The position numbers and the translations under genes were made by a program. The notes under the pieces were generated by a model that saw nothing but the letters and a program-made list of their open reading frames with translations, did no database searches and was not told where the DNA came from. Source: a virus (Duplodnaviria; Heunggongvirae; Uroviricota; Caudoviricetes). From it: 8,779 bases of DNA. The stretch lies in IMG/VR virus record IMGVR_UViG_2671180986_000012; one strand, given 5' to 3'. Shown here piece after piece: positions 2,272 through 7,102 of this stretch. Each line of letters opens with the position of its first letter. Within the stretch, counting starts at the first letter, position 1.

Positions 2272-2368
2272 AAGAAATCCCGCTGCTGCCTGTGGCGGTA
2301 TGAGCCGGATCATTACCAGCAAAAATACGTACTTCCGCACGCTGTTCAGTGATGGTTTTCGTCACCAT
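2272..2368 (-). CDS. D: Head decoration protein, lambda gpD homolog (N-terminal 32 codons visible; remainder masked)
   Basis: ATG at 2368-2366 with GAGG about 10 nt upstream. MVTKTITEQRAEVRIFAGNDPAHTATGSSGIS matches the lambda gpD N-terminus (...GNSDPAHTATAPGGLS). Lies 36 nt downstream of the C/Nu3 stop, as in lambda. Confidence 0.8.
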
Positions 2369-2404: not shown

Positions 2405-2922
2405 TCATGGCATGGCCATGAGCATTTTCACGTCCGCATCACCGTCTGCTGACGTCTGTGACACGCCACCCCGCACCGCTGCCGGTGAATGATTCGCCAT
2501 GAAATGTTCAAACAGGGCGGTTGTGGATGCAGAGACCGGTTCGGCCTTACCTGATCCCGCAGCCAGCACAGCCCGGGCGTTCTCCACGGTCATTCCCGGG
2601 CAGGCCGCCAGTTTTTCAGCCTGCGCTTCTGCCCCTTTTGCCTCATCCAGGGCCATGATCTGATCACGAAGTGAGGGCCCGGCATCCGCCAGTGGTGCAG
2701 CCGCCAGGATCGGGCGTGCTTTTTCCACCGTCATCTCCGGCATCGCCGCCAGCGTTGCCGCCAGTTGTTCACGACCTTTCGCTTCTTCACACGCCATAAT
2801 GCGATCGGCTNNNNNNNNNNNNNNNNNNNNNNNNNNNACTCTGCGCGGATGCCACCGGCTGCTGTGGTGCCGCCGCGGCCAGAATCGCCCGGGCCTGTTC
2901 AATGCTCATGCCCTGTTGTCCT
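2405..2922 (-). CDS. C: Prohead protease / scaffolding protein C-terminal region, lambda gpC/Nu3 homolog (partial; upstream masked; frame changes across N-run 2811-2837)
   Basis: TGA stop at 2407-2405. 2810-2408 encodes ADRIMACEEAKGREQLAATLAAMPEMTVEKARPILAAAPLADAGPSLRDQIMALDEAKGAEAQAEKLAACPGMTVENARAVLAAGSGKAEP... 2921-2838, in another frame, encodes GQQGMSIEQARAILAAAAPQQPVASAQS. Both resemble the C-terminal tail of lambda gpC/Nu3 (...SRIMGILNCEEAHGREEQARVLAETPGMTVKTARRILAAAP...). Confidence 0.8.
2564..2922 (-). repeat. Tandem ~140-nt direct repeats inside the C/Nu3 coding region (at least 3 copies, the outermost running into the mask)
   Basis: + strand units begin near 2564, 2705 and 2880: cagcacagcccgggcgttctccacggtcattcc / caggatcgggcgtgctttttccaccgtcatctcc / cagaatcgcccgggcctgttcaatgctcatgcc. 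Each encodes a copy of the motif (I)MxxEEAKGxExxAxxLAAxPGMTVExARxILAAA on the minus strand. Confidence 0.75.
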
Positions 2923-4462
2923 NNNNNNNNNNNNNNNNNNNNNNNNNNNNNNNNNNNNNNNNNNNNNNNNNNNNNNNNNNNNNNNNNNNNNNNNNNNNNN
3001 NNNNNNNNNNNNNNNNNNNNNNNNNNNNNNNNNNNNNNNNNNNNNNNNNNNNNNNNNNNNNNNNNNNNNNNNNNNNNNNNNNNNNNNNNNNNNNNNNNNN
3101 NNNNNNNNNNNNNNNNNNNNNNNNNNNNNNNNNNNNNNNNNNNNNNNNNNNNNNNNNNNNNNNNNNNNNNNNNNNNNNNNNNNNNNNNNNNNNNNNNNNN
3201 NNNNNNNNNNNNNNNNNNNNNNNNNNNNNNNNNNNNNNNNNNNNNNNNNNNNNNNNNNNNNNNNNNNNNNNNNNNNNNNNNNNNNNNNNNNNNNNNNNNN
3301 NNNNNNNNNNNNNNNNNNNNNNNNNNNNNNNNNNNNNNNNNNNNNNNNNNNNNNNNNNNNNNNNNNNNNNNNNNNNNNNNNNNNNNNNNNNNNNNNNNNN
3401 NNNNNNNNNNNNNNNNNNNNNNNNNNNNNNNNNNNNNNNNNNNNNNNNNNNNNNNNNNNNNNNNNNNNNNNNNNNNNNNNNNNNNNNNNNNNNNNNNNNN
3501 NNNNNNNNNNNNNNNNNNNNNNNNNNNNNNNNNNNNNNNNNNNNNNNNNNNNNNNNNNNNNNNNNNNNNNNNNNNNNNNNNNNNNNNNNNNNNNNNNNNN
3601 NNNNNNNNNNNNNNNNNNNNNNNNNNNNNNNNNNNNNNNNNNNNNNNNNNNNNNNNNNNNNNNNNNNNNNNNNNNNNNNNNNNNNNNNNNNNNNNNNNNN
3701 NNNNNNNNNNNNNNNNNNNNNNNNNNNNNNNNNNNNNNNNNNNNNNNNNNNNNNNNNNNNNNNNNNNNNNNNNNNNNNNNNNNNNNNNNNNNNNNNNNNN
3801 NNNNNNNNNNNNNNNNNNNNNNNNNNNNNNNNNNNNNNNNNNNNNNNNNNNNNNNNNNNNNNNNNNNNNNNNNNNNNNNNNNNNNNNNNNNNNNNNNNNN
3901 NNNNNNNNNNNNNNNNNNNNNNNNNNNNNNNNNNNNNNNNNNNNNNNNNNNNNNNNNNNNNNNNNNNNNNNNNNNNNNNNNNNNNNNNNNNNNNNNNNNN
4001 NNNNNNNNNNNNNNNNNNNNNNNNNNNNNNNNNNNNNNNNNNNNNNNNNNNNNNNNNNNNNNNNNNNNNNNNNNNNNNNNNNNNNNNNNNNNNNNNNNNN
4101 NNNNNNNNNNNNNNNNNNNNNNNNNNNNNNNNNNNNNNNNNNNNNNNNNNNNNNNNNNNNNNNNNNNNNNNNNNNNNNNNNNNNNNNNNNNNNNNNNNNN
4201 NNNNNNNNNNNNNNNNNNNNNNNNNNNNNNNNNNNNNNNNNNNNNNNNNNNNNNNNNNNNNNNNNNNNNNNNNNNNNNNNNNNNNNNNNNNNNNNNNNNN
4301 NNNNNNNNNNNNNNNNNNNNNNNNNNNNNNNNNNNNNNNNNNNNNNNNNNNNNNNNNNNNNNNNNNNNNNNNNNNNNNNNNNNNNNNNNNNNNNNNNNNN
4401 NNNNNNNNNNNNNNNNNNNNNNNNNNNNNNNNNNNNNNNNNNNNNNNNNNNNNNNNNNNNNN

Positions 4463-5716
4463 CCCGTGACCAGGCTGATCGCGCCTGATAAAAATCAAAA
4501 CGNNNNNNNNNNNNNNNNNNNNNNNNNNNNNNNNNNNNNAATAATCCCCCGAAGAAGTGCCTCTTCCAGCCAGCAGGAAAACATCTGCGTGGCCAGTCGG
4601 GCCGCAATAAATTTTCGCCGCCCCATAAAATAGCGCCACGACTCATTGGCGGAGGCGCGGGCACTTGAGTAACTGACCTTCGAGTAATCACGGGACAACT
4701 GTTCGTAGGAAACGCCAAGACCGGCGGCGATATACCGCAGCAGCGCCTGTTCAAGCGCCGAAAATCCATTGTCTGAATCCTGCGCTGTCTGCAGTTTCAG
4801 ATCATCACCAGGGAAAAGGTGCGGAATTTTGACACCGCCCAGCGTCACGTGATTCGTGTCATACCAGCTGGAGAACTTCTCCAGAATATTAATAAGCGGA
4901 TTATCCTTCTGCCCCTGCGGCGCACCGGCGATATATTCAAAGGCCTTTTCGGTATCCAGTTCACTTTCAATCGTCGCTGCATACATCGCCTTCACTATGG
5001 CCGACTGAAGCTGTGTTGCCTGCAGGGAATCGAGCATCTTCAGCCGTTCCATGACGCTGTAAAACTGATTGGCCCCACGGGTCTGCCCGTCCTCCACCGG
5101 CTCGAAAATATGCAGCATGGCCGGACGCCCGGTGGGTAGTTCACGCGGGATCCGTTCCCATCGTCCACTCCCGGAGCGAGGAAAATCATCCTCACAGATA
5201 TGGTACGCAACGGCACGGCCATATCGATCGACCTCCACACCGGCCCGCAGAAAACGGTTCCCGATACCGTGTCCTGGCGTGTCCACCCGTTTCGGACTCA
5301 CGGCTTTAAAACGCGTACGGAATAACTGCGTGGTTTCCGTATCCCAGACCGGCTGCACAAAGATTTCGCCGTTAAACGCATGAACGCCCACACCTTCACG
5401 GATAAATTCCGTAAACGTGCGTTTCCCTTCCACGTCGATCTCACCAAACATCCCTTCTGCGTATTCTGACCAGGCCGCCTCCACCTCATCGACAAAACTT
5501 TTTGCCGCGGTCTCCCGCATCCCCAGCCAGCGCCAGTTCGGACGGTAGCTGATAAGAAACATATGCCCGACAATGTGATCCTTATGCAGGGCCACCGCAT
5601 TGGCCGCTATCCCGTTATTGCGCACCAGATCATCTGCCCGGGCATTCCCCAGACGCAACGCGGGCAGCAGGGCCGCATCGGCACTCTGCGAGGGTGGCAA
5701 CCACTCCGCCATTTGC
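4463..5716 (-). CDS. B: Portal protein, lambda gpB homolog (internal part; both ends masked; frame changes across N-run 4503-4539)
   Basis: 5716-4540 encodes ...SADAALLPALRLGNARADDLVRNNGIAANA...FEPVEDGQTRGANQFYSVMERLKMLDSLQATQLQSAIVKAMYAATIESELDT...LQTAQDSDNGFSALEQALLRYIAAGLGVSYEQLSR...SYSSARASANESWRYFMGRRKF...CWLEEALLRGII, near-collinear with lambda gpB. After the N-run, 4502-4463 in another frame encodes RFDFYQARSAWSR (lambda RFSFQEARSAWGN). Confidence 0.9.
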
Positions 5717-7102
5717 NNNNNNNNNNNNNNNNNNNNNNNNNNNNNNNNNNNNNNNNNNNNNNNNNNNNNNNNNNNNNNNNNNNNNNNNNNNNNNNNNNNN
5801 NNNNNNNNNNNNNNNNNNNNNNNNNNNNNNNNNNNNNNNNNNNNNNNNNNNNNNNNNNNNNNNNNNNNNNNNNNNNNNNNNNNNNNNNNNNNNNNNNNNN
5901 NNNNNNNNNNNNNNNNNNNNNNNNNNNNNNNNNNNNNNNNNNNNNNNNNNNNNNNNNNNNNNNNNNNNNNNNNNNNNNNNNNNNNNNNNNNNNNNNNNNN
6001 NNNNNNNNNNNNNNNNNNNNNNNNNNNNNNNNNNNNNNNNNNNNNNNNNNNNNNNNNNNNNNNNNNNNNNNNNNNNNNNNNNNNNNNNNNNNNNNNNNNN
6101 NNNNNNNNNNNNNNNNNNNNNNNNNNNNNNNNNNNNNNNNNNNNNNNNNNNNNNNNNNNNNNNNNNNNNNNNNNNNNNNNNNNNNNNNNNNNNNNNNNNN
6201 NNNNNNNNNNNNNNNNNNNNNNNNNNNNNNNNNNNNNNNNNNNNNNNNNNNNNNNNNNNNNNNNNNNNNNNNNNNNNNNNNNNNNNNNNNNNNNNNNNNN
6301 NNNNNNNNNNNNNNNNNNNNNNNNNNNNNNNNNNNNNNNNNNNNNNNNNNNNNNNNNNNNNNNNNNNNNNNNNNNNNNNNNNNNNNNNNNNNNNNNNNNN
6401 NNNNNNNNNNNNNNNNNNNNNNNNNNNNNNNNNNNNNNNNNNNNNNNNNNNNNNNNNNNNNNNNNNNNNNNNNNNNNNNNNNNNNNNNNNNNNNNNNNNN
6501 NNNNNNNNNNNNNNNNNNNNNNNNNNNNNNNNNNNNNNNNNNNNNNNNNNNNNNNNNNNNNNNNNNNNNNNNNNNNNNNNNNNNNNNNNNNNNNNNNNNN
6601 NNNNNNNNNNNNNNNNNNNNNNNNNNNNNNNNNNNNNNNNNNNNNNNNNNNNNNNNNNNNNNNNNNNNNNNNNNNNNNNNNNNNNNNNNNNNNNNNNNNN
6701 NNNNNNNNNNNNNNNNNNNNNNNNNNNNNNNNNNNNNNNNNNNNNNNNNNNNNNNNNNNNNNNNNNNNNNNNNNNNNNNNNNNNNNNNNNNNNNNNNNNN
6801 NNNNNNNNNNNNNNNNNNNNNNNNNNNNNNNNNNNNNNNNNNNNNNNNNNNNNNNNNNNNNNNNNNNNNNNNNNNNNNNNNNNNNNNNNNNNNNNNNNNN
6901 NNNNNNNNNNNNNNNNNNNNNNNNNNNNNNNNNNNNNNNNNNNNNNNNNNNNNNNNNNNNNNNNNNNNNNNNNNNNNNNNNNNNNNNNNNNNNNNNNNNN
7001 NNNNNNNNNNNNNNNNNNNNNNNNNNNNNNNNNNNNNNNNNNNNNNNNNNNNNNNNNNNNNNNNNNNNNNNNNNNNNNNNNNNNNNNNNNNNNNNNNNNN
7101 NN

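Follow-up and report, generated by a model that had tools for sequence, protein, structure and literature searches.

Three diverged Tri-type units in the scaffold part of the gp5/gp6 homologue of a phage 21-type E. coli prophage

The window, which is the whole stretch of 8,779 nucleotides analysed here, is a heavily masked lambdoid head operon on the minus strand. Its open reading frames give the order small and large terminase, portal, gpC-like gene, gpD-like gene, gpE-like major capsid protein gene, and FI. In the 3' part of the gpC-like gene, a unit of 40-44 amino acids occurs in three minus-strand copies, and the copy at 2865-2922 enters a mask. The unit consensus is IMA-EEAKGRE-LA--LA--PGMTVE-AR-ILAAAP. 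The locus raises the question of what this repeat is, i.e., how many copies the gene holds in one reading frame, whether they arose recently, and what they contribute to the phage head. The features needed for an answer are the following.

2272..2368, minus strand: start of the head-decoration gene (lambda D / phage 21 shp homologue), downstream of the gpC-like gene, from the window ORFs and the annotation of a relative
2405..4462, minus strand: homologue of lambda gpC / phage 21 gp5 (S49 head protease with C-terminal scaffold domain), from the match to relatives
2405-2407, minus strand: stop codon of the gpC/gp5 homologue
2408..2551, minus strand: C-terminal tail of 48 amino acids, GKAEPVSASTTALFEHFMANHSP...DADVKMLMAMP, from translation
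2552-2671, minus strand: Tri3 unit, LRDQIMALDEAKGAEAQAEKLAACPGMTVENARAVLAAGS, from translation; 'Tri3 box' of M81255
2672..2692, minus strand: Tri2-Tri3 linker, LADAGPS
2693-2810, minus strand: Tri2 unit, (E)ADRIMACEEAKGREQLAATLAAMPEMTVEKARPILAAAP, from translation; 'Tri box' of M81255
2838..2864, minus strand: Tri1-Tri2 linker, QQPVASAQS, from translation; pLDDT below 50 at residues 58-63 of the gp6 model
2865..2922, minus strand: Tri1 unit, visible C-terminal half, GQQGMSIEQARAILAAAAP; 'Tri1 box' of M81255

The unmasked part of 2270-2922 shares 99.7% identity with a prophage of E. coli strain STEC005. Masks aside, 2405-2810 is identical between the two, and 2838-2922 has 2 differing positions. 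In STEC005, the homologue (L002:6634-8139, minus strand) is a single CDS of 1,506 nt, which is annotated as 'S49 family peptidase', encodes 501 aa without interruption, and is flanked by genes for a 'phage portal protein' and a 'head decoration protein'. A Pfam search identified Peptidase_S49 (PF01343, E=3e-35) in this relative, in the part that is masked in the window. The S49 domain makes up the N-terminal two thirds and matches SppA in the PDB (E=7e-16). The relative is 54% identical to lambda gpC, and the window is about 95% identical at the nucleotide level to genes 5/6 of phage 21 (M81255). Its place among the head genes (in the order terminase, W-like, portal, C, D, E) agrees with the gpC/Nu3-gp5/gp6 type, as judged from the window ORFs and the annotations of STEC005, phage 21, and lambda. 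The feature by which members are recognised, one or more 'IMxxxEAxGRE...PGMTVxxAxxILAAAP' units followed by a tail of 40-55 aa, is also present in the window gene. The region is very probably the C-terminal scaffold part of a nested pair, gene 5 (S49 head-maturation protease) and gene 6 (scaffold, the analogue of lambda Nu3), of a phage 21-type E. coli prophage, and its three diverged units of 40-44 aa are the known Tri boxes.

The triplication was known before. In GenBank M81255.1 ('Bacteriophage 21 head gene operon'), gene 6 contains three repeat_region features; they are called 'Tri1 box', 'Tri box', and 'Tri3 box', are labelled 'function unknown; putative', and fall under the megablast match to the window. 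Our result is a rediscovery of the phage 21 Tri boxes, and the statement that they were known before rests on the GenBank feature table. The phage 21 genes (M81255.1; OL657228.1) have the same order of portal, 5/6, shp, and major capsid gene, and gp5 likewise has 501 aa with the three units at identical positions. Only point differences separate the two: the gp6 part differs from the prophage in the amino acid at 10 of 200 codons, and within the Tri units nine codons differ synonymously and five with a change of the amino acid. The window, for its part, represents a prophage copy from a chromosomal lineage of E. coli. The first-pass annotation had considered the repeat the clearest departure from lambda; as a novelty, this claim is lost to the boxes annotated in M81255.

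The STEC005 relative has an in-frame internal ATG with the Shine-Dalgarno sequence GAGGAGG 5 nt ahead of it, and Tri1 begins 12 residues after this ATG. The same ATG is annotated as the start of gene 6 (scaffold), with its ribosome-binding site, in both phage 21 records (M81255, OL657228), and OL657228 names the pair 'capsid protease/scaffolding protein' and 'scaffolding protein'. All three units are located downstream of the annotated gp6 start and would therefore be carried by both the protease and the nested scaffold protein. In the window, this site is masked; the mask at 2923-4462 covers the protease domain, the gene start, and the internal start of gp6 (Nu3-like). The phages differ in the annotated scaffold start: lambda Nu3 (L003:833-1438) begins within the C-terminal part of the protease domain, which is further upstream than in phage 21, where gp6 (L001:2058-2660) begins just before Tri1. 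Nonetheless, the products are similar in length (201 aa for lambda Nu3, 200 aa for phage 21 gp6).

In the window as given, the copies occupy two different minus frames. A DNA repeat search found them as a family of 3 members with start-to-start distances of 141 and 175 nt and 68-73% identity over 41 nt. The mask of 27 N at 2811-2837 stands for 2 nt in close relatives ('tc', between 'gcgatcggct' and 'actctgcg'), and the shortfall of 25 nt is found in all top matches of both collections (E. coli genomes and phages). As 25 extra N shift the frame by one (25 mod 3 = 1), the apparent break is an artefact of the mask. After correction, the units start 141 and 150 nt apart, equal to 47 and 50 codons, and no frame break remains; phage 21 and the STEC005 relative each have one uninterrupted frame over 501 codons. 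The window has further N runs at 620-707, 848-881, 1267-2271, 2923-4462, 4503-4539, and 5717-7102, and those checked do not preserve length. Compared with the homologous sequence in STEC005, the masks measure 27 vs 2, 1540 vs 1274, 37 vs 15, 1386 vs 1081, and 1005 vs 866 nt. Since the N runs are overlong in every mask checked, frames and spacings cannot be carried across masks.

Hence, the three-copy count and the continuous frame are read from relatives, as the window's own masked sequence is not visible. In the relatives, the units comprise residues 314-355, 367-406, and 414-453 of 501; upstream of Tri1, there is a linker of 12 aa and then the S49 domain. In these relatives, the array consists of exactly three copies, which does not support the suspicion that more might be hidden under the mask. 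In the window itself, 2693-2809 encodes ADRIMACEEAKGREQLAATLAAMPEMTVEKARPILAAAP, and the first codon of Tri2 has two bases under the mask. The stretch 2838-2921 translates to GQQGMSIEQARAILAAAAPQQPVASAQS, which is the C-terminal half of Tri1 plus the linker. The N-terminal half of Tri1 is masked and reads ENQRVMGILTCQEAKGREQLATMLA in relatives.

The claim of three in-frame, head-to-tail units in the C-terminal, Nu3-like part of a gpC homologue was borne out by profile and alignment searches. The unit HMM finds three units in this protein (read from relatives), each with 76-80 bits, and one in lambda gpC, at residues 357-399, which agrees with the earlier statement that lambda carries the motif once. 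With BLASTP and compositional adjustment, the single unit of lambda matches three separate places in the 200-aa C-terminus (E = 3e-12, 2e-9, and 3e-9). Independently built PHROG scaffold and capsid-assembly profiles also match three stretches. What stands of the earlier description is that three copies are real and in one frame; a recent or local expansion is not supported, as the units are diverged, and the repeat has long been annotated.

All three copies share the conserved core I-x5-A-x-G-(R)-E-x2-A-x2-L-A ... A-x3-L-x-A. Divergence is greatest in Tri3, where the KGRE turn is without its nearly invariant Arg. Tri3 of the E. coli phage 21 clade reads AKGAEAQAE instead of the nearly invariant AKGRE-LA turn, which the Gifsy-type Tri3 keeps, and the third unit may be functionally degenerate in this clade. 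A tail of 40-55 aa follows the last unit in the full-length relatives inspected, and its residues F166, M170, and D190 are nearly invariant in the homologue alignment.

To place the gene among its relatives, lambda gpC/Nu3 (NP_040584, NP_040585) and the prohead protease of Salmonella Gifsy-1 (STM2605.Gifsy1) are the most instructive. Lambda shares the S49 domain, the in-frame nested scaffold gene as it is annotated in phage 21, the neighbouring genes, and a Tri-type unit followed by a tail of 40 aa. It differs in having one unit, in a protein of 439 residues, instead of three and a low-complexity insert of 34 aa before that unit. Gifsy-1 shares the operon and three positionally matching units, with 67% identity over the unit region; it differs in its host, in its diverged sequence, and in the KGRE turn of Tri3, which is lost in E. 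coli. Phage 21 and Gifsy-1 have three units, compared with one in lambda. Among related prophages, the same arrangement is kept collinearly in about 1,865 of the 5,426 complete E. coli genomes.

A profile built from 27 units was searched against 1.84 billion representative proteins (E <=0.001) and matched 1,484 proteins. Among the best 150 of these, one unit was found in 137, two in 10, and three in 3; among those of the best 150 with at least 380 aa, one unit was found in 44, two in 1, and three in 1. The ranking of profile matches favours multi-copy proteins, yet single copies dominate, and a single unit is therefore clearly the norm. The phage collection contains 20 records in which coverage of the three-unit query reaches 80% or more (the phage 21 group, ev017, 4A7, PhiR phages, and Gifsy-1); among the lambda-type records listed, namely lambda, 434, N15, phi80, HK phages, and others, the match is confined to one unit. 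A first homologue search with the 200-aa C-terminus gave mostly fragments and served only to spot variants with two and four units. Rare two-unit hybrids are P0022 (with a Tri1/Tri2 junction), P0013, and P0018. An E. coli variant with four units (GCA_032727965.1, L007:1-1043, protein P0027) has nearly identical units 2-4 and is hence a separate, younger amplification; its context is D-E-FI-FII with a capsid protein of 342 aa.

A stand-alone protein of 195 aa with two Tri-like units, P0088, was observed at L006:5001-5588 (Logan SRR25568644_270), in a neighbourhood that lacks an S49 protease. It is preceded, at a distance of a few genes, by a small-terminase-like gene, and an unknown protein of 297 aa and a tape-measure gene follow. 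P0088 may be the detached scaffold of a small phage or satellite.

Each unit is predicted to fold by itself as a small three-helix module. The AlphaFold2 model of a single unit (pLDDT 86, pTM 0.60) consists of three short helices in the order helix, EAKGRE turn, helix, PGMT loop, helix. For the 200-aa gp6, the model has a pLDDT of 73-79 in the units and below 60 in the linkers, with a pTM of 0.26, and the tail forms helices at residues 160-173 and 191-196, the latter short and terminal. The contrast between units and linkers, together with the low pTM, suggests independent modules on flexible linkers, like beads on a string. A Pfam search assigned no family to the unit, and a search of the PDB with the unit profile gave no sequence relative, only chance matches such as 10 residues in 9hqv, a Toxoplasma mitoribosome. 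Fold matches to the unit model were not significant.

Scaffolding proteins of the P22 gp8 type have a C-terminal helix-turn-helix domain that binds the coat protein. The Tri unit would be analogous to it as a small helical module near the scaffold C-terminus, with conserved charged residues, in a transient internal scaffold. P22 gp8-type proteins differ in that their module is single and lies at the very C-terminal end, and in that no protease is fused to them, and they gave neither a sequence match nor a significant fold match to the unit. Hence, membership in that group is not claimed.

Lambda Nu3 is a scaffolding protein that self-associates and interacts with C, B, and E (PMC3224144). As the Tri units are predicted to be independent modules and Nu3 has these contacts, the unit could be a module for protein-protein docking in the scaffold. 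Its partner would be the portal or the inner face of the capsid protein, or else it would serve to associate scaffold molecules with one another. With three copies, the scaffold would have a higher valency or a longer reach, the protease would be tethered inside the prohead, and the capsid geometry would stay unchanged. The stand-alone two-unit protein and the PHROG scaffold and capsid-assembly matches were counted in favour of a scaffold role. Tentatively, we propose that lambda-type scaffolds and the fused protease bind the capsid protein or portal through the Tri unit, a three-helix docking module that would fold on its own. If this is true, nature provides a ready-made series to study scaffold valency in assembly, with one unit in lambda, two in some stand-alone scaffolds, three in phage 21 and Gifsy-1, and four in some E. 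coli prophages.

The main rival to a docking module is that the units are a passive spacer, or 'ruler', or segments serving as protease substrate, which set the length or occupancy of the scaffold core, and that the conserved tail docks to the shell. The tail that follows the last unit in the relatives inspected, with its conserved F..FM and its terminal hydrophobic helix, is consistent with such a function, and the tail rather than the units could be the capsid-docking element. The region between protease and units varies widely in length, and lambda has its low-complexity insert there. Furthermore, scaffolds are degraded by the head protease (PMC3224144). The invariant charged turn (EAKGRE) and the hydrophobic pattern, however, are kept in the 1,484 representative proteins, which argues against a pure spacer, and so does the autonomous fold, which is predicted with good confidence. 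We consider the spacer reading rather unlikely.

Extra units might also shift the scaffold stoichiometry and alter capsid size or T number relative to lambda, as the first-pass annotation had suggested. Scaffold variants do redirect capsid size elsewhere, an example being SaPI1 CpmB (PMC5644958). In the present family, however, the major capsid protein found beside genes with one, three, and four units is always of the E family, with 341-342 aa, and is accompanied by a D-type decoration protein, and the genome sizes of phage 21 (42.9 kb) and lambda (48.5 kb) are similar. On this indirect evidence, a change of capsid size is very unlikely.

Regarding age, the units are 47-65% identical in amino acids and 54-65% in nucleotides, and the longest exact stretch they have in common is 8-11 nt. 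Efficient RecA recombination needs roughly 20-30 bp of identity, so the exact matches are well under this requirement. Tandem Repeats Finder did not report the array in 2380-2930, where it found only a trivial 10-nt repeat, because the units are too diverged. Compared at the same position, Tri1, Tri2, and Tri3 are 0.79, 0.80, and 0.68 identical to the units of the Salmonella Gifsy-1-type protein, and off-diagonal values are at most 0.59. This pattern is weaker yet present in more distant three-unit proteins. In an alignment of 20 homologues reaching down to 43% identity, every unit retains invariant core residues of its own.

Among the 5,426 complete E. coli genomes, the unmasked part of 2270-2922 matches at >=90% in 1,870, and in 1,865 of these at least 80% of the 627-nt C-terminal query is covered. 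In a spread sample, nearly all records match collinearly and in a single piece, with 627 nt on 627 nt. Only two sampled E. coli records, H151 (NZ_CP095083.1) and H152 (NZ_OZ121091.1), have a 57-nt (19-codon) in-frame deletion inside Tri2. The same deletion was observed in proteins P0008 and P0009, and the P0009 cluster comprises 53 member sequences. On these comparisons of sequence, the triplication dates far back, has become fixed, and is maintained by selection; it is neither a recent expansion nor a hotspot, and about one third of complete E. coli genomes have it.

A recent local tandem expansion, with the gene as a recombination or slippage hotspot of variable copy number in the population, would find support in the rare two-unit hybrids and the Tri2 deletion variants, and the four-unit variant with its near-identical units 2-4 indicates that amplification is possible in the family. 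The divergence of the units, the short exact matches, the silence of Tandem Repeats Finder, the nearly uniform collinearity of the array in the sample of the ~1,870 genomes, and the positional orthology with Gifsy-1-type proteins all speak against it. Thus, both the recent expansion and the hotspot of the earlier description are extremely unlikely. That the similarity is due to chance or to Ala-rich low complexity, for which the Ala/Glu/Gln-rich sequence and the lack of a Tandem Repeats Finder report could be cited, is refuted by the BLASTP, HMM, and PHROG matches to each of the three copies.

As a discovery, the locus matters little, since the triplication was annotated decades ago in the phage 21 head operon. 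Added here are the predicted three-helix module, the range of one to four copies across the family and in stand-alone scaffold-like proteins, and a copy number that does not track changes of the capsid protein. These points could guide deletion or valency experiments on lambda-type scaffolds.

Two further observations concern the sequences inspected. The 'CII binding site' pattern (TTGYN6TTGY) has one match in the window, at 2755-2768 on the plus strand, vs 0.93 expected by chance; it was rejected as a feature and is most likely meaningless. OL657228 annotates matches to this pattern antisense inside gene 6 (L004:1682-1695 and 1916-1929). On an 11.3-kb Logan contig, the protein P0041 (270 aa) combines an N-terminus resembling a fragment of a DPPY-motif DNA methyltransferase with a scaffold C-terminus of three units. 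Either a genuine rearrangement or a chimera of assembly or gene calling could explain this fusion.
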